64,000 nucleotides of DNA from an uncultured Myxococcales bacterium. GTDB lineage: Bacteria > Myxococcota_A > Polyangia > Fen-1088. A program made the translations under genes and the position numbers. This document shows, piece after piece, positions 1 to 25,783 of this stretch (positions are counted from its first letter, which is position 1; every line of letters starts with the position of its first letter). The stretch covers positions 168 through 64,167 of the forward strand of contig CAZBFJ010000001.1 of the NCBI GenBank assembly GCA_964491125.1. Direction: 5' to 3'. Under the pieces are notes generated by a model. The model was given only the letters and a program-made list of their open reading frames with translations. It was not told where the DNA came from and did not search any database.

Positions 1-1770
1 CAGCCGGCTGACCGCACCGTCGGTGGTGTACTGCCCGATCGCCACGACCGCGCGCCCGCGCACTTCGGGGCGTCGATCGCCGAGAAGCTGGGCGAGGAAC
101 GGCTCCGCCGCGGGCGCGGTGATTGCCCCGAGCGCATCGATGATGCCGAGGCGAACCGGGCGCTCGTGCCCACGGTAACAGGCCATGAGACGACGGGCCG
201 TCGCGCCGTCGCCGATGCGTCCAAGGGCCCGCAACGACTGCGCGCGCGTTTCCGGATCGCGTTCGAACTGCTGCTCGAGCCGGCGCAGCGCGCGCCGCGA
301 ACGACGGTGCCCGAGCGCCTGCACGACCTCGGCGCGGACCGCCACCGAGGGATCGTCGAGCAGCGGTTCCAGCACCTCGAGAGAATCGAGCGTCTCGTTG
401 GCCGCCAACACCCCGACGGCCGCGCGCCGCACCTCCTCGCGGGGGTCCGCCAGTGCCCGCCCCACGAACTCTCGTTGCTCGGGGCAAGGAGAGATGCGCA
501 TGATCTCGAGCACGAGGGGCGCCTGCGCCTCGGCCAACTCGCGCGCCGCCAAGAGGGCGCGCGTGACCAACCCCGCGTCCATCGCGCCGAGCGCACGCAC
601 CGCGGCCTTGCGCACGGGCTCGGCCGGGTCCGCCAGGCAGCGCAACATCGACGGGACCGCTCCCTCCGCCGCCAGCCCCGCGAGGGCCCGCAACGCCGCC
701 ACCCGTACCCGCGTCTCGCTCGCACCGAGGAGCGCCACGCACGGCTCCGTCGCTTCGGCGATCCCCAGGGCCGCCACCGCCGTCGCCGAAAACACGCGAA
801 CGTCCGGGTCCGCGTGCGCCAGTCCCGCCAGCACGGCCGGGTGCGCCGCCGCCCCCGCGAATACCACCGCGTCGAGCAACGGCTCACCGATGGCGGTGTC
901 CCACGCCGCCTCGACCAGGACGGCGAAGAGGCTGGGGAGCGCCAGCGCCCGGATCACGGCGACAGCCGCCTCCTTGAGCGCGTGCTCGGCCGGCGTCACC
1001 TCGACCTCGCGTCGCGCGAGCAGCGTGACCAACCGATCGTGCACGGCCTTGGCCTCGGCCGAGGCCAGGCGCTGCCACGCCCGACTGCCATCCAGCCCCG
1101 TCGCGTCCACCATACGGCGAATGGCGTTGCCCAGCCCGAGCAGGCAACCGTTGAAGTCGCCCGACGCGACCCGGATCGAGAGGAGCTCGGCCAGGACGGT
1201 CGCGGCCGGAACCGTTGCGATCTTGCCAAGCGCCTCGATGGCCAGCTCAGAGATCGCAGAGTCCGCCGCCACGCGCATGAGCGCATGCACGCTCCCCGGA
1301 TGCGCGATGTCTCCGAGCGCGTGGGCCGCGGCGAAACGCAGCCAGGGATCGGCCTCGAGGACCGCCTCGATGGGCGAGGCCGCGGCCTGGGCGCGCAGCT
1401 TGCCGAGCGCGTCGATGGCCGCCTGCGCCACGTTCAGGTCGGGGTGCTGCAGCAGGCGAATGAGGTGCGGTACCGCCGCCGGGTCGCGGGCCTCGCCGAG
1501 CGCGGTCGCGGCGCACATGACCACGTCGGCCTCGTGCGAACGCAAGGCTCGGATGAGCGCCGAGATGCCGCTCGCCCCGCCGTGCGCGAGCGCATCCAGG
1601 ACGGCGTGACGCTGCGCAAGCTCCTCGCTCGCCGGCAATTCCCGCACCTCTTCCCGCGTAACCGCGGGCGTGGCCGGCCCGGGCGGGGGTTGCGGAGCCG
1701 CGGGATCGGGTCCGCTCAATGCCGCGAGCAAGGTTTCGTCGAGCGACGCCACGGGGCCCTGATGTTCCAT
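1..1770 (-). CDS. PBS-lyase HEAT-like repeat protein (Cpc7-like); partial, the 3' end runs past the window start
   Basis: I reverse-complemented positions 1-1770 by hand. The translation is MEHQGPVASLDETLLAALSG... with many repeats of the form AAxALGxxxDPxAVPxLxxLLxDxDxxVRxxAvxALG (e.g. LLDDPSVAVRAEVVQALGH). It starts at the ATG at 1770-1768, 1 nt after the MCP stop. The frame is still open at position 1. It is absent from the ORF track because it runs off the edge. Confidence 0.75.
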   Translation of the reverse strand, partial: MEHQGPVASLDETLLAALSGPDPAAPQPPPGPATPAVTREEVRELPASEELAQRHAVLDALAHGGASGISALIRALRSHEADVVMCAATALGEARDPAAVPHLIRLLQHPDLNVAQAAIDALGKLRAQAAASPIEAVLEADPWLRFAAAHALGDIAHPGSVHALMRVAADSAISELAIEALGKIATVPAATVLAELLSIRVASGDFNGCLLGLGNAIRRMVDATGLDGSRAWQRLASAEAKAVHDRLVTLLARREVEVTPAEHALKEAAVAVIRALALPSLFAVLVEAAWDTAIGEPLLDAVVFAGAAAHPAVLAGLAHADPDVRVFSATAVAALGIAEATEPCVALLGASETRVRVAALRALAGLAAEGAVPSMLRCLADPAEPVRKAAVRALGAMDAGLVTRALLAARELAEAQAPLVLEIMRISPCPEQREFVGRALADPREEVRRAAVGVLAANETLDSLEVLEPLLDDPSVAVRAEVVQALGHRRSRRALRRLEQQFERDPETRAQSLRALGRIGDGATARRLMACYRGHERPVRLGIIDALGAITAPAAEPFLAQLLGDRRPEVRGRAVVAIGQYTTDGAVSRL

Positions 1771-1771
1771 G

Positions 1772-4129
1772 TTAGACGGTGAAGGTCTCCATCCGCTGCC
1801 GCAAGGACTCGGCCTCGGCGGCCAGGTCCTTGGCAGCAAGATTGAGCTCCTCTACCACCTGGAGATTCTGCCTGGCAACCTCGGCGATCGACTCGGTCGA
1901 CCTGACCACCGTCTCCCCGCCACGCTTCTGCTCGAGCGTGGCCTCGAGCATCGAGCTCGTGAGCGCGCTCATCCGCCGAGACGCGGTCACGATCTCCGCC
2001 GCGCTGCCGGCGTTCTCGCGGGCAGCCACGGCGATCTGCTGGGCGATCCCCGACATGTTCTCGGCGACCCTCAGGGTCTGTCGCGCGGCCTCGCTCTGGC
2101 TCTCGGTGGCGAGGGCGCTGGCCGCGATGATGGTGGACGTCTTGTCGATGGAGGCCATCATCCCCACGAGAACGTCGTCGGTCAAGGTCACGGCCGCGCC
2201 CACGTCCTTCTGCACCCCCTCGATGATGCTGCCGATGTCCCGCGTGGCCTGTGCACTGCGCTCCGCCAAGCGCTTGACCTCGTCGGCGACCACGCCAAAG
2301 CCGCGGCCCGCCTCTCCGGCGCGCGCGGCCTCGATGGCCGCGTTCAAGGCCAGCAGGTTCGTCTGATCGGCGATCTCTTCGATCAGCCGCAGGATCTTGC
2401 TAATCTCCCGCGCCCGCTCGCCAATCGCGCCGATCGAGTGCTGCAGGGTCTCGCTGCCCGATTTGACCGAGCCCAGGGTCGCCTTCGACATCTCGTTGGC
2501 GGTCCGGGCCTGCGCCGTGACCTGCGCGATGTTGGCCGTGAGGCCTCCGAGGTGCATGGTGGCCTCCTGGGAGGACACGAGCAAGGATTGTCCATGCAGC
2601 GCGGTCCGCTCCAAGGTTTCGTACATCCGCTGGAAAGCAGAGGTGGTCTCCTCCACGCTGGCCGACAGGGAGGTGGCGGTCGCGGAGAGCTGTTGGATCT
2701 TCGCGGCGATGTCCCCCATGCTGGTCGAGGTCGTGCTGGTGGCGGCCGACTGGGTCTCCGCGCCCTTGCCGAGCTGCTCTCCCGAGCGTGAGATCCGTTC
2801 GGAAGCCACCGCCACCGTTCGCGAGGCGGCGAGAATGGAACGGATGGTCCCGCGCAGGTTGGCCGCCATCTTGCGCATGGAATGAAGGAGCTGCCCAACC
2901 TCGTCCGTCGAGCGCGTCTCGGCGATCTCGACCGCGAAGTTCTGCGCGGCCAGGCTGTTGGCCGATTCGACCGCCAGGGTGATGGGCACGGTGATACTGC
3001 GGACGATGACCGACACCAGACCGGCCGCCAGGAGCACGGCGATCGCGACCAGCGCCAGCGACCAACGCTCCTGATCCTGGCGCGCCACCACCTTGTCGTT
3101 CAGCTCGCTCCCACGGGTGGCCAGCGCAGCGTCGAAGGTCGCGAACAGCCCGTCGAGAGCGCCGCCCACCTCGGCGCGCAAGGCCGCCACGGTCTCCGCG
3201 CTGCCCGCGTCTTTCGTCGAGCTGGCGAGCTGCTTGGCCACCCCCATCGCCCGTCGCGCCGAGCGGTGCCATTCGTCGAAGGGCGCCTTCACCGGGACCA
3301 CCAGCCGGGGCGCAGGCAGCGGGACGCCCCCTTGCGAGACCTCGATGAGGTCGCGCTCGACGTCGGCCAGGTTCATCGCCAGGGCCTCGCTGGCGCTCAG
3401 CAGCTCGGCGCGGGTCGCGAGCGGGACCTCGTCTCGCAGCAGCCACTTGCCGCCGAGCTCGGCGATGTGCTCGAGGCTCCAGGCCGCTTGCGGCAGTCGG
3501 CGCAGGATCGCGTCGTCGAGATGCGCCGCCCCCGCGGTCAGCACCTCGGTTTCGCTGGCCAACATCGCGAGTTGCAGAAACCAGACCGCCACCGAGTCGC
3601 GCAGCGGCTGGCTCAGATCCGCCGAGGTATCCATCACTGCCTGACCGCTCATGGCGCGCAGCCGGCTGAGCGTCTCGGGCATCCGCAGGCGCGCCAGCTC
3701 GGGGTTGGCCCCACACCCCGCGCTGCCCAGGCTGTCGAGCTCGGCCACCGAAGTCGCCAGGACGCGGCGGGCGTTGCCGAACATCTCGTCCACCTGGGCG
3801 AGCCCGGTGGCGCCGTTCAGCAGGATCTGCTGGCGCAAGATTCGCCGGAGCGGCTGCGCGTAGCTCCCCATGCACTGCATGCGCTTCATGCGGTCCACCT
3901 GGTCCTTACTCTTGCCGACGAAGTCGCGCAGGAAGAACACGGTCGGCAACAAGAGCACGACCATGATGAGCACCAGCTTCCACCAGAGCGTCAGGTGCCG
4001 GAGGAGGGGCGCGCCTTCGACACGGCCCAACCAGAAGCGGCGTCGGTGTTCGCCTGCAGCGGGTTCTGGCGCGCTCTTCTCGCCGCGCACGGCGGCCTCC
4101 AAGCTTGGGGTCCTCACTCGTCGGCTCAT
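1772..4129 (-). CDS. Methyl-accepting chemotaxis protein (TM1 - roughly 300-aa periplasmic sensor - TM2 - HAMP - MA signalling domain)
   Basis: 785-aa ORF. It has the conserved MCP signalling hairpin ([35 protein letters not shown]) and two TM helices ([20 protein letters not shown] and [19 protein letters not shown]). The ATG at 4129 overlaps the cheW stop (ATGA). Confidence 0.9.
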
Positions 4130-4680
4130 GTCGCTTCCCCTTTCGTGGGTGGCGAGGCTGCCTCGTCGCGTAGAAAGCCTTCCGCGTCGAGCAGGGTGAT
4201 CCGCCGGTCCTCGACGCTGCCCACCCCGGTGATACCGGGAACGGCCACGCCCGGGGGCGGCGCCGCGATGTCACCCGAGGCGAGCTTGACCACGCGGGCC
4301 ACGCGGTCCACCAACAGCGCGAGCTGGCGACCGGCAACCTCGACCACCAGCAGTCGCGACTTCGGCGTCGGCAAGCCTCCCGCGAGCCCGGCCCGGGAAC
4401 GAGCGTCCACCACCGGCACGATGTGGCCACGCAGGCTCACGACGCCGCGAACGTGGGCGGGTGCCTCGGGGAGGCGGGTGAGGGTCGACACCCGCACGAT
4501 CTCGCGACACTGCAGGATGGGGACGCCGTATTCGTCGTCGCGCAGAAAGAAGGTCACGTACGCCGTGAGAGCCGTCGCGGACCGAGCCGCCGGCTCCGAT
4601 CCGGGCGCACGCAGGCTGTCCACGAACCCGAGCAACGAGCCATCCGCCACCCCGCCAACCTTCACGGGCTCAGAGGACAT
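4126..4680 (-). CDS. cheW: Chemotaxis coupling protein CheW
   Basis: The C-terminal 180 aa of ORF 4126..5025 is a CheW domain ([23 protein letters not shown]...[22 protein letters not shown]). The N-terminal 115 codons of the track ORF are Arg/Trp-rich junk that overlaps cheA. I chose the ATG at 4680 ([10 protein letters not shown]), which overlaps the cheA stop by 11 nt. Confidence 0.8.
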
Positions 4681-6382
4681 CGCCAAAGGCCTCCTCGCCG
4701 GCCGCGCTCGGCGTGCTTGGCTGCCGGGCCTTCCCGATCCGGCGCACCACCTCCATGCAATCGAGGATCGGCACCACCCGCCCCTGGGCCAGCACCGTCG
4801 CACCGGTGACCAGGTGGCAGGCTGCGAGCGTCCCGTCAAGCGGCTTGACCACGATCTCCTGGACGCCCGCCAGCCAATCGACCAGCAGGACACCGCGGTT
4901 GTTGCCTGCCTGCAGGACCACACCGTAGGGCCGGGTCCACGCCTGGGAGAGCCCCTGGCATCCGAGCAACCGCCCGCCATCCGCCGCGCGCACGAAATCG
5001 CCCCGCCAGGAAACCAGCAGGACACGGTTGATCTCCTGCAAATCGCGCTCGCGGCTCTCGAGGGTGTCGAGCACGAAACCGGCGGGGAGCGCGAAGCTCT
5101 CGCTGTCCACGCCGAAGATGAGCGCCCGCTGCAGCGACACGGTCACCGGCAGGTCCAGCACGAACTCCGTTCCCTTTCCCGGCGTGGAGCGGACGTCGAT
5201 GCCGCCGCCCAACCCCTGCACCGCCGCCGCCACCACGTCGAGCCCCACCCCACGTCCCGCGAGACTGGTGACCACCTTGGCGGTGGAGAAGCCCGCCTGG
5301 AAGATGAGGCGCTGCAGCTCCTGCGGACCCATTCCATCGACGTCCACGCCGTGCGCCTTGGCCTTGGCCGCGATCGCGGCGAGGTCGAGCCCACGACCGT
5401 CGTCGCCAATCCGCACGTCGACCCGGCCCTCCCGGAGCCGCGCGGAGAGCACGATCCTCGCCGCCAGCGGCTTGCCGGCGCGCACACGCTCCTCGGCGGG
5501 CTCGATCCCGTGCGCGACTGCGTTCCGCACGAGGTGGACGAGCGGCTCGAACAGGCGGCCGATGATCGCGCGATCCACGGCGGTCTCGCCGCCCTCGATC
5601 ACGAGCTCGATGGCCTGCCCGCGGTCACGGGCCAGGTCACGCAGGTAGCGCTGGAAGCGCCGGAACAGCGTCCCGATGGGCGCCAACCGGACCCGCAGGA
5701 GCTCGTCGCGCATCCGGCGTGCCAAGCGCCCGAGCTCGGCCACGAGCTGATCCATGAGGGCGACATCGCCGGCCTCGAACTGGTTGCGCGCGAATCGCCC
5801 ATGGATGCGCGCCAGCTCGGCCTGGCCGACGATCGTCTCGCCGCTGAGCTCGAGCAGCTCGTCGAGCGCCCCGTCCGCGATACGCGTGCTTCCCGGTCGA
5901 TCGCCCTCCGTGGCCGCTGCCGCCGGCTCCACCATCGGCACGACGGGGCGCGGGGCGCCTCCCTCGGCGGGCGCGCGCGCCCCCCGCGCCTGGGTCTGGG
6001 CCGCGGCGCGCGCCACGAACGCCTCCACCTCGTCCGCCGGGAGCTCCCCCGACGGAGCCGAGGCAACGAGCCGATCGAGCAGATCGCAACCTTCGATGAG
6101 CGCCTGCGCCAGGGCCGTCGGCTCGCCGGGCGGTGGGTCGGAAACTCGCGGGCACAGGTCCTCGAGCGCGTGCGCCAGCCGCTCGATAGGCCCAAATCCC
6201 ATCATGGCGCCGTTGCCCTTGATGGTGTGCAGGTTGCTGCGAATACCGCGCAGGACCGCGCTCCCGTCCCCGCCCGCCCGCCAGACCTCCTCGAGCTTGA
6301 GCAGGAGGCCCCCCACCTCTTGCGAGAACGGCCGCGTCTCGTCGACGAAGTCGTTGACCAAGGATGAGAAGATCCCTTCCAC
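4670..6382 (-). CDS. cheA: Chemotaxis histidine kinase CheA (HPt - dimerisation - HATPase_c - CheW-like)
   Basis: The HPt phospho-His motif is HTIKGNGAMMGF. The ATP-binding G-boxes are DDGRGLD and GRGVGLDVV. The C-terminal CheW-like domain is present. The track ORF continues upstream to 7132 as low-complexity Arg/Gly sequence overlapping the next gene. I chose the in-frame GTG at 6382 (VEGIFSSLVNDF), which lies after a GAGGGCGGC RBS and 11 nt past the upstream gene's stop. Confidence 0.85.
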   Translation of the reverse strand: MEGIFSSLVNDFVDETRPFSQEVGGLLLKLEEVWRAGGDGSAVLRGIRSNLHTIKGNGAMMGFGPIERLAHALEDLCPRVSDPPPGEPTALAQALIEGCDLLDRLVASAPSGELPADEVEAFVARAAAQTQARGARAPAEGGAPRPVVPMVEPAAAATEGDRPGSTRIADGALDELLELSGETIVGQAELARIHGRFARNQFEAGDVALMDQLVAELGRLARRMRDELLRVRLAPIGTLFRRFQRYLRDLARDRGQAIELVIEGGETAVDRAIIGRLFEPLVHLVRNAVAHGIEPAEERVRAGKPLAARIVLSARLREGRVDVRIGDDGRGLDLAAIAAKAKAHGVDVDGMGPQELQRLIFQAGFSTAKVVTSLAGRGVGLDVVAAAVQGLGGGIDVRSTPGKGTEFVLDLPVTVSLQRALIFGVDSESFALPAGFVLDTLESRERDLQEINRVLLVSWRGDFVRAADGGRLLGCQGLSQAWTRPYGVVLQAGNNRGVLLVDWLAGVQEIVVKPLDGTLAACHLVTGATVLAQGRVVPILDCMEVVRRIGKARQPSTPSAAGEEAFGDVL

Positions 6383-6393
6383 GCCGCCCTCGC

Positions 6394-8127
6394 CTACCCG
6401 GTCTTGCGTTCTCCGAAGATGGCCTCTGGCACGTCGGGGACGGGCCTCGAGCGGCGGAGGAACTCGTTCTCCAGCGCCAGGCCGAGCTGAAAAGCGGCCA
6501 GCTCGAAGATCTCGATGTCGCCGATCGGCCGATCGCGCGAACCGTTGTCCATGTAGATGGCCGCGATCATGCGAGCGCTCCCCGGCACGGGCAGGACCGC
6601 GATCTCCCCGGTACGAGGTCGATCGACCACCTGCGCGAAGCCCGCCGGGAGCTTCGCCTCGTCGTAGTAGACCCGCCGGGGACGACTGTCCGATAGGCAG
6701 TTCTTGAAGATCCCCGCGTCGCCGATGGGGACGATCAGCCCCTTGGTCACCCTCGCCAAGGGCGCGCCTTCGAGCGTGTTGCCGAACGCACCGAGCGCGA
6801 CGAGGCGGTCGAGATGCGGCACGAAGAGCACTCCGCGCTCGAGAGACTCGGCCACGGCCGCCATTAGGTTCGACGACACCGAGGTCCCGAGCAGCCCGGA
6901 GCGCAGGTCGGCGATGATCCGTCGCAAGCGGGCGAAGCTGGTGCGAATTCCCTCGGCGATCGCGACCTCGTTCGCCATGTACTTGCGCTGGCGCGCCGCC
7001 GACTGCATGCAGGCGACGATGGTGGCCGGAACCGCCGAGGTCACCGACAGGACGCCCACCTGGTACATCTCTCGCAACGGCGCGCGTCCCTCGAAGAGCG
7101 CGATGACCGCCGCCCGCGGACGGGACCGGCAAAGCGCCGCCAGCGTGGCCAAGGCGGTCGGCTGGTAGCGCAGGTCGACCACCACGATGGGGGGCGCCTC
7201 GCCGAGGAGGGAGGCGCCGGCATCGCGGAGCGCGACCGCCGAAACGTGGTCACCCCCGAGGGCCAAGAGCGCGTTGAGCTGCGCGCACAGCTCGGCGTCC
7301 GGCGAGACCAATTGGAAGCGAAGGCGGTCGACGGCCGGCATCGGCGTCGGCTCCCTAGGCGAAGAGTCGCGCGGGAGCCCGGGTCTCGCGCCGAGGCCGT
7401 CGCTCGCCTCCGTTTCGGCGACCAGCCCGGCCGGCCGCCTGGCGCCGCCCTTGGTCCCACTCTCCGCCGGCACCGCCTCGAGCTCGGCGCTCTCGCTCAG
7501 CGGCTGCCGGACCGTGACCTGCTCCGGGGGCTGGTCCCCGGTCGTCGCGTCCACGTCGTCCGGAGCCGGGATCACGTCATCGAAGCCCGTCAGCGGCTCT
7601 TCCGCGCCCGCCGACCCGGGCTCGAGCTCGCTCTCCTCGAGCCGCCGCAGGGCCTCCATCAGCACGGCCTGCGTGTCGAGGTCCAGCTTGGGGGCGCCGG
7701 TGAAGCGCGTGACCTCGACCACCGGGGTAAGGTCGTCGACAGCGAACTCGAAAGAGCCCGACTTCCAGGTGCAGATCTCGGCCACCACCCGCTCGATCTC
7801 CTTCGCCATCACGTCGCGGATGACCTCGGGGGTGGTGGCGTTCATCTTGACGAGGTAGTGGCCTATCGGGCGCCGCGGTCGGTCGCCGTTCTGCGCCGCC
7901 AACGCCGCGGCCAAGAGGGTTTGGTCGAGAACCCCGGCCGCCACCAGCAGCTCGCCTACCCGCAAGGTGCGCGCGTTCCACGCGCTCACGATGCGGCCGC
8001 GCTCGAAGCCGATGATCGCTTCCTCTTCCCCGTTGTTGATCGTCAAGCTCCCCGAGTGCCCGCCCACGCGAATGAGCTGCATCACATCCGCCACGGCCAC
8101 GTCCTCGATCATGCCCTGGAAGCTCAT
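6394..8127 (-). CDS. DUF4388 - receiver-like - GAF multidomain signalling protein
   Basis: The N-terminus (IEDVAVADVMQLIRVGGHSGSLTINNGEEEAIIGFERGRIVSA) matches the DUF4388 pattern. The middle segment (PIVVVDLRYQPTALATLAALC...) looks like a divergent receiver fold. The C-terminal roughly 150 aa (VLFVPHLDRLVALGAFGN...IAAIYMDNGSRDRPIGDIEIFELAAFQLGLALEN) is GAF-like. It sits 31 nt downstream of the GAF gene and 11 nt upstream of cheA. Confidence 0.75.
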   Translation of the reverse strand: MSFQGMIEDVAVADVMQLIRVGGHSGSLTINNGEEEAIIGFERGRIVSAWNARTLRVGELLVAAGVLDQTLLAAALAAQNGDRPRRPIGHYLVKMNATTPEVIRDVMAKEIERVVAEICTWKSGSFEFAVDDLTPVVEVTRFTGAPKLDLDTQAVLMEALRRLEESELEPGSAGAEEPLTGFDDVIPAPDDVDATTGDQPPEQVTVRQPLSESAELEAVPAESGTKGGARRPAGLVAETEASDGLGARPGLPRDSSPREPTPMPAVDRLRFQLVSPDAELCAQLNALLALGGDHVSAVALRDAGASLLGEAPPIVVVDLRYQPTALATLAALCRSRPRAAVIALFEGRAPLREMYQVGVLSVTSAVPATIVACMQSAARQRKYMANEVAIAEGIRTSFARLRRIIADLRSGLLGTSVSSNLMAAVAESLERGVLFVPHLDRLVALGAFGNTLEGAPLARVTKGLIVPIGDAGIFKNCLSDSRPRRVYYDEAKLPAGFAQVVDRPRTGEIAVLPVPGSARMIAAIYMDNGSRDRPIGDIEIFELAAFQLGLALENEFLRRSRPVPDVPEAIFGERKTG

Positions 8128-8158
8128 CGCGTCCCTCGCATGGGAGCTGCCCTGGTCA

Positions 8159-8920
8159 TCACCCCTTCTTGACGAGCTTGATCAGCCCCTCCAAGGTTCG
8201 CAGCTTGCGAGCGGCGCGCGCGTAGACGCGCGAGGCAAAGAGCGCCGAGGCCGCGTGCGCGCCCAGAAGATCGAGCAGCTCGCGGTCTTCTTCTTCGAGG
8301 GCGGCCTTGTGCTCGAACAGCTTGGTGACGACGAGCGCCCCGACCGTGACGTCCTGCACGCGCAGGGGCACGACCACCAGCACCGGCGAGCTTTCGGTCG
8401 GGCCGAAGCGCAACAGGCCGTCGAGCAACGACGCGTCGATCAAGGGATCGCCCCCGCTGTACGTCGGCTGGCTCGCCCAGGGAGCCGCGATCTCTCCCTC
8501 GCGCAGGCGGATCTCGAGCGCGCTGCCATCTTCGGCGTGCAGGAGCAGCAGGAAGTGCTCGGCCCCGAGCAGGTTGACCGCGATCTCGGCGATCGTGGAC
8601 TGCACGTCGGCGGGATCCAGCGTGGCGTGTAGCTGGTACGTCGCCACGTAGAGGGTCATCAGGCGCCCGACCTGGTGCTCGACCTCGACCAGGCGAGAGG
8701 CCAGCTCCTCCCGATCGTTCTCGGCCTGGGCCAAGCGAGCCTCGCGCTCCGGAATCTCCGTCGAAGCAGCCCGCTGCTGCACCACGGACTGACTCGCTTC
8801 CTCGATGGCCCTCTGCGCGTCGCGAATGAGCTGCCGGGCGCGCATCAGCGTGGCGAGCGGGTCCGTGCTGTCTAGCCCCGTGCTGGATGAACCGGCGGCC
8901 ATGGCTTCACCGTCCTTCAT
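8159..8920 (-). CDS. Coiled-coil + GAF domain protein
   Basis: 253 aa. The N-terminus is a coiled coil (RARQLIRDAQRAIEEASQSVVQQRAAS...). The C-terminus is a GAF-like fold (NLLGAEHFLLLLHAEDGSALEIRL...VLVVVPLRVQDVTVGALVVTKLFEHK). The ATG at 8920 overlaps the cheY-like stop (ATGA). Confidence 0.7.
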   Translation of the reverse strand: MKDGEAMAAGSSSTGLDSTDPLATLMRARQLIRDAQRAIEEASQSVVQQRAASTEIPEREARLAQAENDREELASRLVEVEHQVGRLMTLYVATYQLHATLDPADVQSTIAEIAVNLLGAEHFLLLLHAEDGSALEIRLREGEIAAPWASQPTYSGGDPLIDASLLDGLLRFGPTESSPVLVVVPLRVQDVTVGALVVTKLFEHKAALEEEDRELLDLLGAHAASALFASRVYARAARKLRTLEGLIKLVKKG

Positions 8921-9324
8921 GGAAGCGTGGGAGCGGAGGTGGGGGCCGGGCTGGTGGTGAGACGCCCGATGATCTTGAGCAGGTCCTCGCGCTGGAACGG
9001 CTTCTTGAGGTAAGCGACGGCTCCCGCCTGGAGCCCGCGGGCCACGTCCTCTTCCTTTCCCTCGGTCGAGACGATGACCACCGGGATCTTCGCGAAGTCG
9101 TCGCTCTGCTTGACCTCCTTCAAGAACTCGAGCCCCGTCATGTGCGGCATGTTGATGTCGAGGATGATGACATCGACGTCCTCGTGCTCGGCCAGCCGGG
9201 CCAGACCTTCACGGCCGTCGTGGGCCGCGATCAGCATGCAGGGCCGCAGCATCACCTCGTACATCTTGTGGATGAGGCGCGAGTCCTCGACCACGAGCAC
9301 CTTGCGAGTCTTGGCGACGTTCAA
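8917..9324 (-). CDS. cheY: CheY-like single-domain response regulator
   Basis: The C-terminus of track ORF 8917..10074. I chose the TTG start at 9324 (MNVAKTRKVLVVEDS...) after a GGGAGG RBS with 6-nt spacing. The receiver has the acidic pair EDS, the phospho-Asp in ILDINMP, VST and LKKP. The upstream part of the track ORF is Pro/Ser/Arg junk. Confidence 0.8.
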   Translation of the reverse strand: MNVAKTRKVLVVEDSRLIHKMYEVMLRPCMLIAAHDGREGLARLAEHEDVDVIILDINMPHMTGLEFLKEVKQSDDFAKIPVVIVSTEGKEEDVARGLQAGAVAYLKKPFQREDLLKIIGRLTTSPAPTSAPTLP

Positions 9325-9712
9325 CGGGAACCTCCCTTGGCGGGGACCAGACGAAGCTGCCGATCGTGCACGGTAGGGCGGCACGACGGGGCGTGCAGTC
9401 ACCTTGTCCCATCTAGAGTTTTCGTCGGAATGTGGGTCTTGCTTGAGGCTGACGAGCTCGCCTCCACGCGACGAGCCAGCCCCGAGCGGAGGCGTAGTCT
9501 GCCATGGTGTCGGCGGCGAGGGCCAGGGGGGGAAAGGTCCTACCCGAGCGCCGGGGAGGCGGTTGTGCGGTGACGCACGGAGGATGCCTCGGCTTTCCCC
9601 CGGCCCGGCTCGAGAGCCTCCGAGAAACGCGGGCGCCGCGAAGAGGACATGAGCGCCGGCTCGCGGTGCCCAGACGTTCCCTCTCTCGCTCAGGCCGCCA
9701 CGGACTGCCGGC

Positions 9713-11986
9713 TCACCGGCGACGCCGACGCGGCTCGACCAGGGCATCCGAGATGGCCACCGCGGTCTCGAGATCGCATCCGAGCCGCCTGGCCGCGGCC
9801 GGCACCCGGAGGCCGCGCGAGAGGTCGGTCGCCAGGCGCTCGAGCTCGTCCGCGCGTACCGCGACTCCGCCCGCCACGGGGAAGCCCAGGGCCAGGCAAG
9901 TCTCGTCGTCGACCTCACTGGCGGGAACGAAGTATGGCTGCCGCGCGGGCGGCAGCTGAAGGGAGATCCCGGGGCCGAGGAAGGCGCGACACAGCGACAG
10001 GCGAACGAGGAGAGCCTCGGGGCGTAACAGGGACACGGCGTAGAGCACGCGTCGACCGAGCTTGATCCCGGCACGACCGAGGCGCCCGCGATCCCCGGGC
10101 TCGAGCTGACTGAGCTGCGCCTGCGCCTGCCCCGCGAGCGCGGTGCCGAGCCCCTGCTCGAGCTGATACACGATCCCGCGCCCCGCCGGCCCTAGCCTGG
10201 ACAACTCCGCGGTCCGCAGCGGCGAGAGCAACGTCTCGGTGAGATCGCGCGCCCAGGCCGTGAGCCGCCGCTGCAGGCGTAAGCGCGCCCCGGGCCCCAG
10301 CCCCGAGGCGGTTACCGTTACCTCGGGCCGCAGGCGATCGGCGCCCCGGCTCATCCGCCCGAGCACCTGCCCCTCCGCGACGATCCGGCCTTCCTCGTCG
10401 AGACCAAAGCGATCGCCGCTCGCCTGCACGAGCTCGTCGACCCACCGGTCGAGATCGGCGGCTGGCGCGCCGGCCTCCTCCGAGTCTCTTTCCACCGCCT
10501 CGCGCAGCTGCTCGCCGAATCGCCCCCGCGGCACGGCGCGCCCCTTGGCGCGACGGCTGCCGGCGTCGACGAAGCGTCGCACCAGACGCTCGTGCAGGGC
10601 ATCGGACAGGTCGTCCTCGAGCTTGCGGGCCTGCTCTTGCCACCCCCGCGCGTCGTCGAGCCAGCGCGGGTGATGGGTGATGTACGTCCAGGTCCGGATG
10701 AACGCCATGCGGGCGAGCAACGTATCGATGTCCCCTTGAAGGTCGGCAAGGCGCTGCAGGTGGCGCGCGATCCAGTCTCTCTCCAGCCGGCCCCGGGGAC
10801 CCGTCAGCTGCAGAAACACGGCCCGCAGGAGCTTGAAGTGGTCGTCGAGCTGGAGCTGCCGGTAGTCGGGGATCTGGCACACCTGCCAGAGGAGCTCGAC
10901 GCTGCCGCGTGCCCGACAGCGGGTGACCACCTCGGGATCTCCAGCCAGCCGGGCGAGGGCACGGCTGTCGTCCGCGCCGTCGACCGGGACGAGGCAGGCG
11001 TGCGGCGGCCGCCGGGCCAGCGATGCCTCGAGCGATTCCAGCGAGCGCAGGTCGAGATCGGCGTTGCGCCAGAAGACCTCCGTCTGCACCGGGAAGCGGT
11101 GCTCTTCGATGGCGCGCACCGTGACCGGCGGCAGGGCTGGCAGGGGCGACAGCGTCACGAACCTGCCAGGGTTGTGGTAGCGCCCGGCGCGCCCCGCGAT
11201 CTGAGCGAGCTCCGCGTCCTCGAGCTCGCGGAGCTTCCGCCCATCGAACTTGCGCAGGTCCGCGAACGCCACGCAGTCGACGTCCATGTTGAGCCCCATG
11301 CCGATCGCGTCGGTGGCCACCATGTAGTCCACCTCGCCGGACTGATAGAGCGCGACCTGCGCGTTGCGTGCCCTCGGCGACAGCGCGCCCATCACCACCG
11401 CCGCGCCACCGCGCCGGGCCCGCAACCGCTCGGCCAGCTCGTAAACGCGGTCCACCGAGAACGCAACCACCGCCGTCCGCGGGGGCAGCCCACGCAAGTT
11501 CACGTTGCCGCCCCAGGACAGGCGCGACATCCTCGGCTTCCGCTCGATGACCGCGGTCGGCACCAGACGTTCGAGGATGGGGCGAATGGTGTCGGCCCCG
11601 AGAAACCACGTCTCGCGCCGGCCCCGCCAGTTGAGCAGGCGGTCCGTGAACACGTGTCCGCGCTCGACGTGGCCGGCCAGGTGGACCTCGTCGACCGCGA
11701 GGAAATCCACGTCCCGCTCGCTCGGCATCGCCTCGACGGTGCAGACGAAGTACCGCGGCCGCGGCGGGACGCGCTTCTCCTCGCCGGTGATGAGCGCGAC
11801 CGCCCCTTCCCCGATTCGCGCCGACACGCGATCGTAGATCTCCCGCGCGAGCAAACGCAGCGGCAGCCCGATCATGCCGCTCTCGTGCGTGAGCATCCGC
11901 TCGACCGCGCGGTGGGTCTTGCCGGTGTTGGTGGGCCCGATCTGCGCGGTGATGCTCGACGCGAGAAGGGACGCGGGGAGAAGCAT
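9713..11986 (-). CDS. SUV3-like ATP-dependent RNA/DNA helicase (superfamily 2)
   Basis: Motif I, GPTNTGKTHRA, is almost identical to the SUV3 GPTNSGKTYHA. Helicase motifs DEVH, VVFSV/SAT-like and QIAGRAGR follow, then a long helical C-terminal extension. I chose the ATG at 11986; a GTG at 12025 is possible. Confidence 0.75.
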   Translation of the reverse strand: MLLPASLLASSITAQIGPTNTGKTHRAVERMLTHESGMIGLPLRLLAREIYDRVSARIGEGAVALITGEEKRVPPRPRYFVCTVEAMPSERDVDFLAVDEVHLAGHVERGHVFTDRLLNWRGRRETWFLGADTIRPILERLVPTAVIERKPRMSRLSWGGNVNLRGLPPRTAVVAFSVDRVYELAERLRARRGGAAVVMGALSPRARNAQVALYQSGEVDYMVATDAIGMGLNMDVDCVAFADLRKFDGRKLRELEDAELAQIAGRAGRYHNPGRFVTLSPLPALPPVTVRAIEEHRFPVQTEVFWRNADLDLRSLESLEASLARRPPHACLVPVDGADDSRALARLAGDPEVVTRCRARGSVELLWQVCQIPDYRQLQLDDHFKLLRAVFLQLTGPRGRLERDWIARHLQRLADLQGDIDTLLARMAFIRTWTYITHHPRWLDDARGWQEQARKLEDDLSDALHERLVRRFVDAGSRRAKGRAVPRGRFGEQLREAVERDSEEAGAPAADLDRWVDELVQASGDRFGLDEEGRIVAEGQVLGRMSRGADRLRPEVTVTASGLGPGARLRLQRRLTAWARDLTETLLSPLRTAELSRLGPAGRGIVYQLEQGLGTALAGQAQAQLSQLEPGDRGRLGRAGIKLGRRVLYAVSLLRPEALLVRLSLCRAFLGPGISLQLPPARQPYFVPASEVDDETCLALGFPVAGGVAVRADELERLATDLSRGLRVPAAARRLGCDLETAVAISDALVEPRRRRR

Positions 11987-13707: not shown

Positions 13708-16170
13708 TCAGCCCCCGGCCCGGGGCGCCGCCAGGGTCTGGCGGAGGTGCTCGAGGCTCGGTGGCTTGGCCATGTGACGATCGAAGCCGGCCTCGGCCGC
13801 CCGCTGCAGGTCCTCCGGCAGCGCGTAGCCGGTCAGGGCCACGAGCAGGGTTCCCGCGAGCGATTGCTCGGCGCGCAGGGCCCGAGCCACGTCGTAGCCG
13901 TCCATCCCCGGCAGCCCGATGTCGCAGAGCACGACGTCGGGGTGGTGCTCGAGGGCGTGCCGCAGCCCGGCCGGGCCATTGTGCGCGACCCATACCTCGT
14001 GCCCTTCGAGCTCGAGCAGCTCCCGTAGGCTCTCGGCGGCGTCCGCGTGATCTTCGATGATGAGCACGCGTCCCTGGGATACGGGAGAGCTCGCCAAGAG
14101 GGCCTCGTCTCCCTCGGCCGCCGTCATGTCGAGCGGCAGCCGCATCGCGAACTCGGAGCCCTGGCCTGGGCCGCGGCTCTGCGCCTCGACGGTGCCGCCG
14201 TGCAGCTCGACCAGCTCCTTGACGAGGGCCAGGCCGAGCCCCAGCCCGCCCCGGCTGCGATCGAGCGTCGTCTCCGCCTGCATGAAGGGCTGGAACAGAC
14301 GCTCCACGAGCTCGGGCCTCATGCCCATGCCCGTGTCGGCGACGCGCACGACCGCTTGCCGGGTTGCCACGTCGGCGGCGACGGTCGCGGTGACCCGTCC
14401 GCCCCGCGGGGTGAACTTCACCGCGTTGTGCAGAAGGTTCCCCACCGCCTGCGCCATCCGGCTGCGGTCGGCGTTCACCCGGACCGGGACACCCGGCAGC
14501 GCGAGCTCGAGGGCCACGCCCGCCTTGTCGAACTCCAGCCGGTAGTCCTCGCCCGTGCTCCGCACCAGCTCGCCGAGGTCCAGGCGTTGCCTTTGCAGGT
14601 GGATCTTGTTGCGGGTGATACGGGTGACGTCGAGCAGATCGTCGACCAGGCGGGACAGCTGGTCGACCTGGCGATCGATGATGGCCTTCACCCGCCCCGC
14701 CTGCTCGCTCCCCGGGACCGCTTGGTCGAGCACCGCGAGGCAGTTCTTGATCGGGGCGAGCGGGTTCCGCAGCTCGTGCGAGAGCGTGGCCATGAACTCG
14801 TTCTTGCGCTGATCCGCCTCGATGAGCTGCGCGTTGGTGATGCTGAGCGCCCGGCTGGTTTCCATGCGCTGGACGGCGGCGGCGACCTGGTCCGTAACCG
14901 CGCGCATCAGCTCGACCTCGTCCTCGGCGAAGCGCGGTCGGTGCCGCGTGCCAAACGAGAGAGTCCCAAGCACGCGATCGCCCTGTCCGAGCAACGGATG
15001 GCAGCAGTAAGCCTGCAGGCCGTAGCCACGGATGAGCTCGGCGCGCGGGTCATCGGAGTGCTGCAGGTCCTCGGCGAGGATGCGGGTGGCATCCCGTGCC
15101 ACGCAACCGCAGATGGCCACGCCGAAGTCCAGCCGTTCGATCTTGGCGGCCGCGTCGGCCGGGATCCCCGCGAAGGCATTGAGGCGCAGCCGACCTTCGG
15201 CCGGCTCCGCCATGAAGTTGAAGAACGCCTGGCAGTCGAGGTGAGCCATGACCTCGTGGCAGAGCTCGTCGATCACCCGCTGGGGCTCCTCGGCGCGCAG
15301 CAAACGGCCGGCGGTGCGCGCCAGCAAGCGAAAGCGGGCCTCGCTGGCACGCAAGGCGTCCTCGGCGCGCTTGCGCGGGCTGATCTCGGTCGAGACGCCG
15401 AGCACGTGCTCGACCGTCCCGTCGGGGGCGCGCTCGGCCGCCAGCTTGAGCAGGAAGTGCCGTGGTTCTCCCGGCGGATCGAAGGCGAACTCGACCTCCT
15501 CGGAGATCCCGGTGGCGAAGACGCGCGCGATGGCGCGTTCCCAGCGGTCGCACAGGGCCGCCGGCATGCCCATCTCGCGGTTGGTCCTGCCCAGGAATGC
15601 GGAGCTGGCGATGCCGGTCACTTCTTCGGCGCGCCGGCTGAGGTACACCACCCGCTGCTGGCGATCGAAGCGCATCAGGATCGAGGGGATGTTCTCCGCC
15701 AACCCACGGAAGCGGCGCTCGCTGTCTTCCAGGGCCCGGTGCGCGGCCTCGAGCTCCGCGACCCGTCGGGCGAGCTCCGCCTGCTGGAAGTTGAGCTGGA
15801 GCAGGATGCGCGCCTTGCTGGTGAGGATCTTGGGCTCGATGGGCTTGACCAGGAAGTCCACCGCGCCGGCGTCGTACCCGCGGAAGATGCGGACGCGGTC
15901 GTGCATCCCCGCCGTGACGAAGATGATGGGAACGCGTCGGGTGCGCTCGGCGCCGCGCATGAGCTCGGCGAGCTGGAAACCGTCCATCTCCGGCATCTGG
16001 ATGTCCAGGATGGCAAGGTTCACGTCGTAGGCGAGAAGCAGCTCGAGTGCCTCGGCCCCCGAGCTGGCTTCGAGCAGCTCGGCCTCGAGCGAGCGCAACT
16101 GGGCCCGCAGCGCCAACAGATTCTCGGCGCGATCGTCGACGAGGAGGATGGTCGGTCGGGTCATGGTCAT
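13708..16170 (-). CDS. Hybrid sensor histidine kinase (REC - PAS - GAF - HisKA - HATPase_c - REC)
   Basis: 820 aa. N-terminal receiver (ILLVDDRAENL...LDIQMPEMDG). H-box FMATLSHELRNPL. N-, G1-, G2-boxes. C-terminal receiver (VLIIEDHADAAE...VLCDIGLPGMDG). The ATG at 16170 overlaps the cheR stop. Confidence 0.9.
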   Translation of the reverse strand: MTMTRPTILLVDDRAENLLALRAQLRSLEAELLEASSGAEALELLLAYDVNLAILDIQMPEMDGFQLAELMRGAERTRRVPIIFVTAGMHDRVRIFRGYDAGAVDFLVKPIEPKILTSKARILLQLNFQQAELARRVAELEAAHRALEDSERRFRGLAENIPSILMRFDRQQRVVYLSRRAEEVTGIASSAFLGRTNREMGMPAALCDRWERAIARVFATGISEEVEFAFDPPGEPRHFLLKLAAERAPDGTVEHVLGVSTEISPRKRAEDALRASEARFRLLARTAGRLLRAEEPQRVIDELCHEVMAHLDCQAFFNFMAEPAEGRLRLNAFAGIPADAAAKIERLDFGVAICGCVARDATRILAEDLQHSDDPRAELIRGYGLQAYCCHPLLGQGDRVLGTLSFGTRHRPRFAEDEVELMRAVTDQVAAAVQRMETSRALSITNAQLIEADQRKNEFMATLSHELRNPLAPIKNCLAVLDQAVPGSEQAGRVKAIIDRQVDQLSRLVDDLLDVTRITRNKIHLQRQRLDLGELVRSTGEDYRLEFDKAGVALELALPGVPVRVNADRSRMAQAVGNLLHNAVKFTPRGGRVTATVAADVATRQAVVRVADTGMGMRPELVERLFQPFMQAETTLDRSRGGLGLGLALVKELVELHGGTVEAQSRGPGQGSEFAMRLPLDMTAAEGDEALLASSPVSQGRVLIIEDHADAAESLRELLELEGHEVWVAHNGPAGLRHALEHHPDVVLCDIGLPGMDGYDVARALRAEQSLAGTLLVALTGYALPEDLQRAAEAGFDRHMAKPPSLEHLRQTLAAPRAGG

Positions 16171-16985
16171 TGCCTTCGGTAGATTCGCTGGTCCCTCACG
16201 TGTTCGCTGAAAGCCTCGGTATGCGTGGAGAACCGCAGGGTCTCCTTGGCGCCGAGCCCGAGAAACCCCTGGCGCACCAGGGCCTCGGCGAAGAGGCCGA
16301 GCGTGCGGTCCTGCAGGGTCCGATCGAAGTAGATGAGGACGTTCCGGCAGCTCACCAGCTCGACCTCGGCGAAGACCACGTCCGTCGCCAAGCTGTGCTC
16401 GGCAAACAAGATCTTGCGGCGTAGCGAGGAGTCGACGATGGCCGCCCCGTAGCCCACGGCGTAGTGGTCGGCCAGCGAGCCGCGACCGCCCGCCTCGAGA
16501 TACGCGCGGCTGAAGCCCGCCATCCGCTCGAGCGGGTAGATGCCCTTCTCCGCCACCGCCAGGGCCCCCGGAGCGATGTCGGTGGCGTAGATGAGGGCAT
16601 TGTCGAGGAGTCCTTCTTCCCGCAACAAGATGGCGAGCGAGTACGCCTCCTCCCCGGTGCTACATCCTGGAACCCACACCTTGAGAGAGGGACGGGTACG
16701 TAGCCACGCGACCACTTGTTGGCGGATCGCGCGGAAGTACCCAGGATCGCGGAACATCTCACTGACCTGCACGGTCAACATCGAGAGCAGCTGGCCCCAC
16801 GCGTCGGCGTCGTGGAGCACGAGCTCTTGCAGTCCCGAGACCGACCGCACCCGAAAGCGTCGCACGGCGTCTTCGATCCTGCGTCTGATCGAGGATGGGG
16901 CGTAGTGGCGGAAGTCGTGGTGGTACTTGGCGTAGATCGCCTCGAAGAGGAGGGGTATCTCGATGTCCGGCTCGCCGAGCGCCAT
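16167..16985 (-). CDS. cheR: Chemotaxis-type protein-glutamate O-methyltransferase CheR
   Basis: 272 aa. SAM-binding motif VWVPGCSTGEEAYSLAILL plus a conserved CheR N-terminal helical subdomain. There is no TPR or other extension. Confidence 0.88.
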   Translation of the reverse strand: MALGEPDIEIPLLFEAIYAKYHHDFRHYAPSSIRRRIEDAVRRFRVRSVSGLQELVLHDADAWGQLLSMLTVQVSEMFRDPGYFRAIRQQVVAWLRTRPSLKVWVPGCSTGEEAYSLAILLREEGLLDNALIYATDIAPGALAVAEKGIYPLERMAGFSRAYLEAGGRGSLADHYAVGYGAAIVDSSLRRKILFAEHSLATDVVFAEVELVSCRNVLIYFDRTLQDRTLGLFAEALVRQGFLGLGAKETLRFSTHTEAFSEHVRDQRIYRRQ

Positions 16986-16995
16986 CGACCGCCCC

Positions 16996-25590: not shown

Positions 25591-25783
25591 TGCGACCTCG
25601 AGTGCCAGACGGGGGTTTCGTAGCGATCCGCACCGTTTGGGTCCCATTGTATCAGCTTTCGCCCAACTTCATTGAGGCGGCGCCACCTCGACCTCGCCCG
25701 AGCGTGGGCCAGGACACGCGGCGATGCGCGACGTGGGATCGCTGCCCACATCGCCCGCGATGGTCTACTTGTGCTACCTCGGG

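Follow-up and report, generated by a model that had tools for sequence, protein, structure and literature searches.

A cheY–GAF–PATAN gene trio conserved in Myxococcota and Acidobacteriota: a candidate split variant of PatA-type regulators in a chemosensory operon

The DNA analysed here is a stretch of 64,000 nucleotides from an uncultured Myxococcales bacterium (contig CAZBFJ010000001.1 of assembly GCA_964491125.1; the whole stretch is hereafter designated the window), which carries a chemosensory operon with two genes for GAF-domain proteins standing between cheY and cheA. We found that these two genes, one coding for a coiled-coil GAF protein (hereafter designated GAF1) and the other for a 577-residue protein with an N-terminal PATAN domain (DUF4388/PatA_N), a linker, a receiver-like module and a C-terminal GAF domain (hereafter designated the PATAN protein), form together with cheY a conserved, independent signalling cassette across Myxococcota and Acidobacteriota. 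In our best reading, the trio is a variant, split and with added GAF domains, of the PatA-type regulators of cyanobacteria, in which a PATAN domain is followed by a receiver (REC) domain. The cassette appears to be undescribed; in the literature on DUF4388/PATAN proteins, GAF domains and chemosensory systems, no description of a cheY-GAF-PATAN arrangement was found. The presence of two GAF proteins between cheY and cheA had been pointed out in an earlier note on this DNA and was confirmed by the coordinates of the open reading frames (ORFs), Pfam, AlphaFold2 (AF2) models and Foldseek.

The order cheY-GAF1-PATAN gene was kept at 17 of the 26 genome loci compared, and at most of the 17 the genes for CheA, CheW and a methyl-accepting chemotaxis protein (MCP), with or without a HEAT-repeat gene, follow downstream, including the versions of about 40% identity at loci L022 and L023. 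At L030, in a 5.2-Mb genome, the trio is convergent to a cheA-cheW-x-MCP-HEAT-cheR-cheB cluster, and at L033, in a Polyangiaceae metagenome-assembled genome (MAG), it adjoins a che cluster of another kind, which includes CheD and a split CheA. Moreover, stand-alone trios, flanked on both sides by 8-9 kb free of che genes, were found at L034 and L035 (Thermoanaerobaculia) and at L011 and L014 (fen MAGs). Identities across the phyla amount to 61-63% for the regulator, 56-62% for GAF1 and 36-37% for the PATAN protein, and the CheY of the window is 61-63% identical to the trio regulators of L034, L035 and L030.

GAF1 and the PATAN protein also occur fused to each other, as GAF1-PATAN-pseudoREC-GAF polypeptides represented by P0292 (755 aa) and P0323 (724 aa), the N-terminal parts of which are 48% and 42% identical to GAF1, respectively. 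P0323 was found on independent contigs (L028 8001-10175; L029) and is encoded by the last gene of the cheA...MCP-ParA-cheW-cheR-cheB operon of L028, and the gene for P0292 (L031 3192-5459) comes after genes for PilZ, GAF and a CheB fragment. Since such fusions are present in two lineages, a physical or functional partnership of the two proteins is argued for on the Rosetta-stone principle.

Both ORFs sit exactly where the earlier note had drawn them, and they are taken as real genes because of the G+C content at the third codon positions of the 577-aa ORF (GC3 = 0.90), its hundreds of full-length homologues (58-99% identity) and the conserved synteny. The translational coupling that the note ascribed to both GAF genes stands only for the cheY/GAF1 junction, where the ATG of GAF1 overlaps the cheY stop codon (ATGA), whereas GAF1 and the PATAN gene are separated by a 31-nt spacer and the PATAN gene and cheA by 11 nt.

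As had been proposed, the PATAN protein combines a DUF4388 domain, a segment of receiver-like topology and a C-terminal GAF domain, which was borne out by Pfam, AF2 and Foldseek; the peptides quoted in that proposal were located at residues 6-49 (MIEDVAVADV...) and 313-321 (PIVVVDLRY). In the AF2 model, built on 65 homologues and having 254 residues with a predicted local distance difference test score (pLDDT) >=90, a connecting helix lies between the (βα)5 domain and the GAF-like α/β domain. Residues 270-384 and 418-558 of the window protein gave no Pfam match, even at E<=10, and a single-sequence phmmer search of the 577-aa protein against PDB sequences gave nothing useful. By Foldseek, the C-terminal half was best matched by 6oaq, a dual-sensor kinase of the REC-GAF type (E 1.7e-7); isolated GAF and REC or pseudo-REC domains ranked next, and the C-terminal domain further matched 3oov (E 1.6e-4), 6ozb, 4g3v and 5w10. 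At the family level, this domain was recognised by Pfam GAF_2 at E<=1 in 44 of 65 clade members (best 7.9e-6; the window member itself unmatched) and by Pfam GAF in 21 of 40 wider-family rows (best 2.5e-8), and the score of P0300 (31.8 bits) exceeded the cut-off. Throughout the family, the domain keeps F448-G449 and Y525-x-D527-N528-G529. The profile and structure analysis thus assigned the C-terminal regions of the two proteins to GAF and the middle module to a (βα)5 receiver-like fold.

Full-length members of the family span 519-611 aa. With the REC-like and GAF half as query, 433 clusters (50% identity) were retrieved at E<=1e-3 and 90 at E<=1e-30, most of the 433 being 480-570-aa proteins with an N-terminal DUF4388. 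The members come from uncultured Myxococcota/Polyangia and Acidobacteriota (Thermoanaerobaculia) and are named 'DUF4388 domain-containing protein' or 'GAF domain-containing protein' in the databases, some being called response regulators by the Joint Genome Institute (JGI).

The middle module keeps the fold of a receiver and the equivalent of one of its key residues, Asp57, whereas those of Asp12, Asp13, Thr87 and Lys109 are all missing. Its structural matches have template modelling (TM) scores of 0.62-0.69 (CpaE 4dn6, 0.67; MtrA 3nhz, 0.69; CheY 1tmy, 0.68; also Spo0F and PhoP), and the known pseudo-receivers CpaE/TadZ and AmiR are among its neighbours (TM 0.62-0.67). A family profile matched REC chains among PDB sequences weakly (E 0.007-0.02), and Pfam Response_reg was matched by none of the 65 clade members at E<=1 and by a single row of the 40-row wider alignment (E 0.26). 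In the local profile alignment to CheY (hhalign), whose residue equivalences are of low probability, Asp57 corresponds to D318 (codon 7174-7176), which is present in 65 of 65 clade members and in 80 of 84 representatives at <=50% identity. The positions of Asp12 and Asp13 are taken by S275 and P276 (S/T and variable, respectively, in the wider family), with D277 one residue on. Thr87 aligns with F345 beside a gap (V/A/I/T in the wider family), and the Lys109 region corresponds to T363/S364, no Lys being found in residues 358-368 of any member; the β5 loop of the 84 representatives has the consensus AGAxAVVP in place of AGASGYVVKP in CheY. Both the retained acceptor Asp and the absent N-terminal acidic pair had been noticed before. 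Receiver biochemistry has established that these missing residues are required for a receiver to bind Mg2+ and to stabilise the phosphoryl group. Because the Mg2+ ligands and Lys109 are lost, phosphorylation of the middle module is improbable, and we designate it a predicted pseudo-receiver. Judging from the sequences, the sole complete phospho-acceptor site in the operon is that of the free CheY, whose active site is canonical (E-D, D in VIILDINMP, S in VVIVSTEG and K in YLKKPF). As a separate observation, two blocks of the pseudo-receiver are invariant in the clade, namely LRDAGxSLLGE at residues 300-310, before β3, and CRxRPRA...FxGRAPLR at residues 333-352, in the β4-α4 loop (~7072-7228, minus strand); they look like an interaction surface and are not conserved in the wider family.

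The four-helix insert of the PATAN domain resembles the MshEN_N module. Over residues 52-112, a profile of the wider family matched PilF (6f8l, E 3.8e-19), PilB (5zfr, 4e-9) and MshE (5htl, 3.6e-8) among PDB sequences, and the clade profile matched the same three proteins (4.7e-7, 6.7e-4 and 8.9e-4, respectively) in an alignment reaching MshE residues 5-62. In MshE, PilB and PilF the module lies at the N-terminus of the ATPase, whereas here it is embedded in the PATAN domain. Binding of cyclic di-GMP (c-di-GMP) by MshEN relies on two tandem 24-residue motifs, RLGxx(L/V/I)(L/V/I)xxG(L/V/I)(L/V/I)xxxxLxxxLxxQ, joined by a 5-residue spacer (PMC5013675). Motif 1 of the window protein, R56-Q79 (RVGELLVAAGVLDQTLLAAALAAQ), fits at 23 of the 24 positions, the exception being L to V at position 2, and its residues R56, G58, L61, L72, L76 and Q79 are invariant in 65 of 65 members. 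Motif 2 (residues 87-110), which follows after 7 residues, is a conserved variant that fails even a relaxed pattern: MshE R38 is replaced by T/A/S/P87, with an invariant R86 one residue before, Q61 is replaced by E110, and T98 is present. XpsE, which does not bind c-di-GMP, is altered at the same Arg38- and Gln61-equivalent positions, and Pfam T2SSE_N gave no match. The best candidate for a nucleotide site would be the MshEN_N-like insert of the PATAN domain and not a GAF domain. The relationship between PATAN and MshEN is already implicit in the literature, in that the supplement of PMC5013675 aligns M. xanthus proteins, PATAN-like in appearance, with the motif starting at about residues 51-58; no discussion of it as a property of PATAN was found. 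The window also contains, at 60249-61916 (minus strand), a gene for a protein with GAF and HD-GYP-type (HD_5) domains, a possible c-di-GMP phosphodiesterase.

The smaller of the two proteins, GAF1, is a GAF protein as had been supposed: three Pfam models exceeded their gathering scores over residues 101-227 (GAF_2, 32.1 bits with a cut-off of 28.6; GAF_3, 30.3 with 27; GAF, 28.2 with 22.4), and the AF2 model (pLDDT 85) consists of a long helical hairpin followed by a GAF fold. Foldseek gave 50 PDB matches at E<=1e-3, nearly all of them GAF domains, with Lcd1 (5w10) at the top (E 3.4e-7, TM 0.68), and 1418 homologues were found. The junction between hairpin and GAF domain carries a near-universal motif, LYVA(T/S)YQLH, and the invariant residues W148, Y154, G156-G157-D158, D162 and R171-F172-G173-P174 lie between core strands 2 and 3. 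The start of GAF1 is ambiguous, being either the ATG at 8920 that overlaps the cheY stop or the ATG at 8902, which gives a 247-aa form, as in the 100%-identical database protein P0121.

For neither GAF domain is a ligand inferable from sequence, because the NKFDE cyclic-nucleotide signature was not matched in GAF1 or the 577-aa protein by regular-expression search, GAF1 has no Cys, and C477 of the PATAN protein is not kept in the wider family. With NKFDE missing from both, binding of cAMP or cGMP was rejected. We also rejected bilin attachment through C477 in conjunction with the downstream 'PBS-lyase-like' HEAT protein, since position 477 is A/C/S/V family-wide, GAF1 has no Cys, and the HEAT_PBS matches are generic. 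A common origin of GAF1 and the C-terminal GAF domain found no support either: hhalign of the domain profile against the GAF1 alignment detected no relation (E 0.84), and the two GAF domains are not recent duplicates.

The features described above are collected in Table 1. The window has a G+C content of about 70%, and the operon genes and domains listed all lie on the minus strand. The operon runs in the order cheY, GAF1, PATAN gene, cheA, cheW, MCP gene and HEAT-repeat gene. The product of cheA lacks both P2 and a fused receiver. The conserved part of the operon ends with the HEAT-repeat gene, which runs off the window and whose orthologue at L027 codes for 645 aa and is followed by unrelated genes; at that orthologous operon (L027 16305-19672) the HEAT gene is terminal, an outer-membrane efflux gene comes next, and cheR and cheB are unlinked, unlike at L030. 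Upstream of the operon lie genes for a Suv3-like helicase and ilvC, and on a MAG contig of 325 kb the orthologous operon has the same neighbours. A scan upstream of cheY detected no sigma-70-type promoter or terminator consensus in 9250-9800, and the sigma-54-like pattern TGGC-N8-TGC had 0 matches in 9325-9712. A gene for 152 aa with no Pfam match lies just upstream of the MCP gene at L028 (2172-2630) and at L030 (15571-16029, directly after cheW); it is absent from the operon of the window.

Table 1 Coordinates of the operon genes, of the domains of the two GAF proteins and of the stand-alone trios (positions in the window, or in the named locus)
Feature	Residues	Coordinates	Strand	Description
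cheY		8917-9324	-	135 aa; single-domain response regulator; TTG start after GGGAGG; Pfam Response_reg 92.6 bits
GAF1		8159-8920	-	253 aa; coiled-coil + GAF
GAF1 helices	21-99	8624-8860	-	Helices 21-52 and 57-99; predicted helical hairpin or coiled coil (AF2)
GAF1 GAF domain	101-251	8168-8620	-	Pfam, AF2, Foldseek, alignment
PATAN gene		6394-8127	-	577 aa; PATAN, linker, predicted pseudo-receiver, GAF
PATAN (DUF4388/PatA_N)	4-166	7630-8118	-	PF14332, E 2.1e-24, 86.3 bits; pLDDT mostly >90
Four-helix insert of PATAN	53-112	7792-7971	-	MshEN_N-like; profile matches, motif statistics, AF2
Linker	173-260	7348-7611	-	Disordered, acidic, Pro-rich; pLDDT <50; length varies among homologues
Predicted pseudo-receiver	270-384	6976-7320	-	(βα)5 CheY-like fold (AF2, Foldseek)
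C-terminal GAF fold	418-558	6454-6876	-	AF2, Foldseek, family-level Pfam
cheA		4670-6382	-	Hpt (HTIKG), dimerisation, HATPase, CheW-like (Pfam); GTG start 11 nt past PATAN-gene stop
cheW		4126-4680	-	184 aa; 11-nt overlap with cheA end; Pfam CheW 108.5 bits
Transmembrane MCP		1772-4129	-	785 aa; HAMP + MCPsignal (Pfam); ATG overlaps cheW stop (ATGA)
HEAT-repeat gene		1-1770	-	At least 590 aa, runs off window; Pfam HEAT_2 210 bits
Stand-alone trio, L034		7849-10575
Stand-alone trio, L035		7744-10668
Stand-alone trio, L011		6787-9572
Stand-alone trio, L014		3239-6018

Some further genes were observed around paralogues and elsewhere in the window. At L024 (6514-11980), a PATAN paralogue (39% identity) lies directly downstream of a gene for a GAF-HisKA-HATPase kinase and beside a gene for a PilW-like minor pilin with an N-methylation motif; this pilin is the only hint of a type IV pilus that was found, and a weak one. 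The upstream GAF-histidine-kinase gene at L024 was considered as a GAF1 homologue and rejected, as it has no specific similarity. The PATAN paralogue at L026 and the stand-alone trio at L011 are each directly followed by a gene for a Ser/Thr protein kinase (at 9070-10452 and 9765-11243, respectively). In the window, a block at 13708-20112 (minus strand) holds no MCP, CheA or CheW and contains an orphan CheR-type methyltransferase gene (16167-16985) between those of two GAF-containing hybrid histidine kinases, one with the order REC-PAS-GAF-HisKA-HATPase-REC (13708-16170) and the other being a GAF-HisKA-HATPase protein with three REC domains (16996-20112). The gene at 22330-25647 (minus strand) codes for a protein of 1105 aa in which DUF4215 is repeated six times.

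By domain order and operon context, the PatA-type regulators (PixG, which occurs with PixH, PixJ and PixL, and those of the PilG/TaxP type) would be the closest functional analogues of the PATAN protein, as they likewise have an N-terminal PATAN followed by a CheY-like fold and belong to chemosensory operons with a separate single-domain CheY. The arrangement had seemed to be without precedent among che clusters in the earlier note; the cyanobacterial Tax operons, in which a PATAN-REC regulator is encoded beside a single-domain CheY, provide one (PMC11181946). The PATAN is the output domain of these regulators and binds PilB1 and PilC (PMC11181946; bioRxiv 10.1101/2021.06.11.447907), and PixL phosphorylates both PixG and PixH (PMC11181946). 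Unlike in the PatA-type proteins, the receiver here lacks the acidic pair, Thr87 and Lys109, and is not the only other domain, a GAF being appended; moreover, a dedicated coiled-coil GAF partner gene is adjacent and sometimes fused, cheY comes first, and the hosts are Myxococcota and Acidobacteriota and not cyanobacteria. Synechocystis PixE, too, is a PATAN regulator with an unphosphorylated receiver, and it depends for its activity on a partner: it is non-phosphorylatable and controlled by the sensor protein PixD (PMC11181946; bioRxiv 10.1101/2021.06.11.447907). In contrast to the trio, the partner of PixE is a BLUF photoreceptor and not a GAF protein, PixE stands outside a che operon, and it has no C-terminal GAF. 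The REC-GAF dual-sensor histidine kinase (6oaq/6oap), the best structural match to the C-terminal half, is alike in fold only, with no detectable sequence similarity, and the 577-aa protein has neither its kinase core nor a bilin Cys.

The backbone of the operon has the same gene order as M. xanthus Che7 (cheY7-cheA7-cheW7-mcp7-cpc7(HEAT)-cheR7-cheB7), a likeness by order only, to which L030 adds cheR and cheB; CheA of the window has Hpt, dimerisation, HATPase and CheW-like domains and no fused receiver. The HEAT gene of that cluster, cpc7, is presumably MXAN_6961. Unlike in Che7, two extra genes stand between cheY and cheA, the window clade lacks cheR and cheB after the HEAT gene, and the MCP has transmembrane and HAMP regions, both of which are missing from the soluble Mcp7. 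The M. xanthus Che7 locus tags run from 6965 to 6959 (PMC3945109 tables).

The trio is assigned as one cassette because of the tight operon, the conserved order, the stand-alone trios and the fusions, and in the window it would serve as the output of a Che7-ordered chemosensory pathway, a reading to which we give a probability of roughly 0.45. From the computed domain folds, degenerate receiver site, synteny, stand-alone trios, fusions and MshEN similarity, we infer the direction of phosphotransfer, a physical complex, ligands and a target as follows. The MCP would control CheA, which would phosphorylate the single-domain CheY, the only competent receiver predicted in the operon. Phosphorylated CheY (CheY~P) and GAF1 would then act on the 577-aa adaptor, whose receiver would serve as a non-phosphorylatable docking or relay module, and would thereby change the availability of the PATAN domain for a cellular target; by analogy with the PatA-type regulators, this may be the machinery of type IV pili or of polarity, or else some other localised complex. 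The two GAF domains may hold the complex together, as the fusions suggest, and may add a small-molecule input, to which the MshEN_N-like insert may add an input of the c-di-GMP type. A scaffold feeding a second signal into the pathway, one of two roles proposed in the earlier note for the larger protein, is thus plausible and is strengthened by the GAF1-PATAN fusions.

Several observations weigh against the assignment of the trio as the output of the pathway. At L032 and L024-L026, neither a regulator gene nor a GAF1-like gene adjoins that of the family member, and the neighbours of stand-alone trios and paralogues include no recurrent target gene, Ser/Thr kinase, AAA ATPase and PfkB genes being among those seen. 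Neither the operon nor the rest of the window has pil, mgl or other machinery genes, and the members are all known from MAGs of uncultured bacteria. The almost universal conservation of D318 is unexpected for a purely structural pseudo-receiver. Furthermore, the HEAT protein could itself be the real target of CheY, by analogy with Cpc7, which M. xanthus CheY7 reportedly binds; in that case, the GAF/PATAN pair would have another role.

Among other explanations, the two GAF proteins may be cytoplasmic input sensors of a metabolite or second messenger that modulate CheA directly as soluble co-receptors. GAF domains are typically small-molecule sensors, both of these carry clusters of invariant residues, both genes lie immediately upstream of cheA, and PilZ and extra GAF genes occur in related loci; all the same, we consider this unlikely, for the trio travels with the regulator and not with CheA or the MCP, as at the che-free loci L034, L035, L011 and L014 and at L030, where it is on the opposite strand from cheA. 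PATAN is, moreover, an output domain in the characterised cases (PMC11181946; bioRxiv 10.1101/2021.06.11.447907), and no recognisable ligand motif is present. It is quite improbable, in our view, that the 577-aa protein is itself phosphorylated at D318 by CheA, as a second output or a GAF-gated phosphate sink. In favour of this, D318 aligns with Asp57 in all 65 clade members and 80 of the 84 distant representatives, an acidic residue, D277, is close to where strand 1 ends, the PatA-type PixG is phosphorylated by its CheA (PMC11181946), and some members bear response-regulator labels at JGI. Against this stand the missing equivalents of Asp12/13, Thr87 and Lys109, VVP in place of VVKP, the lack of a significant Response_reg match among 65 clade members and 40 wider rows (best E 0.26), and the pseudo-receivers CpaE/TadZ and AmiR among the nearest structural neighbours. 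With Thr87 and Lys109 missing both here and in the 84 distant representatives, the ligand-gated phosphate sink, the other role put forward in the earlier note, is unlikely.

GAF1 might, in a proposal compatible with its place in the cassette, be a GAF-regulated CheY~P phosphatase that replaces CheZ, CheC or CheX by means of the pair E79...Q83; this we take to resemble the short (D/E)xxxQ motif of CheZ and HisKA_3. The predicted helical hairpin at residues 21-99 would suit such a role. An alignment of 56 members shows no variation at E81, H82 and Q83 and a conservation of at least 90% at E79, and the trios of Acidobacteriota have D/E-x-E-H-Q. The operon contains no other phosphatase gene, and within the trio conservation is highest in GAF1 and the regulator. 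The motif is nevertheless not universal, reading IENR at L030, AEAQ at L033 and SEHR in the fused P0323, and neither the sequence nor the fold of GAF1 matched CheZ, CheX or CheC, which leaves the phosphatase with little likelihood. Finally, the PATAN paralogues in unrelated contexts (L024-L026, L032) would fit with two unrelated genes lying in the operon by chance. This is contradicted by the synteny and fusion data, that is, by an order kept at 17 of 26 loci in two phyla, by the tight spacing and overlap and by two independent fusions, and may be regarded as extremely improbable.

The assignment of the trio as the output cassette of the pathway can be extended to a bolder version, which we hold to be doubtful. 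The trio may be a coincidence detector, in which CheY~P would dock on the predicted pseudo-receiver, and the GAF-GAF partnership and a c-di-GMP-type nucleotide at the MshEN_N-like insert would jointly gate the engagement of a PilB-type motor or polarity complex by PATAN. If so, the trio would be a split, second-messenger-gated regulator of the PatA type into which CheA plugs here and unlinked kinases plug elsewhere.

To our knowledge, PATAN proteins abound outside cyanobacteria, M. xanthus alone having more than a dozen, but have hardly been characterised; how the targets are reached in chemosensory systems whose output is not flagellar is, as far as we know, a long-standing gap. The cassette provides a concrete architecture for it, in which a competent CheY is joined by a GAF partner, fused to the adaptor in some cases, and by a PATAN adaptor with a degenerate receiver and an MshEN-like insert. 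It also offers a means of annotating at least 433 clusters (50% identity), now named just 'DUF4388 domain-containing protein'. If the model is true, a phosphorelay, GAF sensing and possibly c-di-GMP would be joined in one output device, and the functional connection between PATAN and PilB-type ATPases would be explained.

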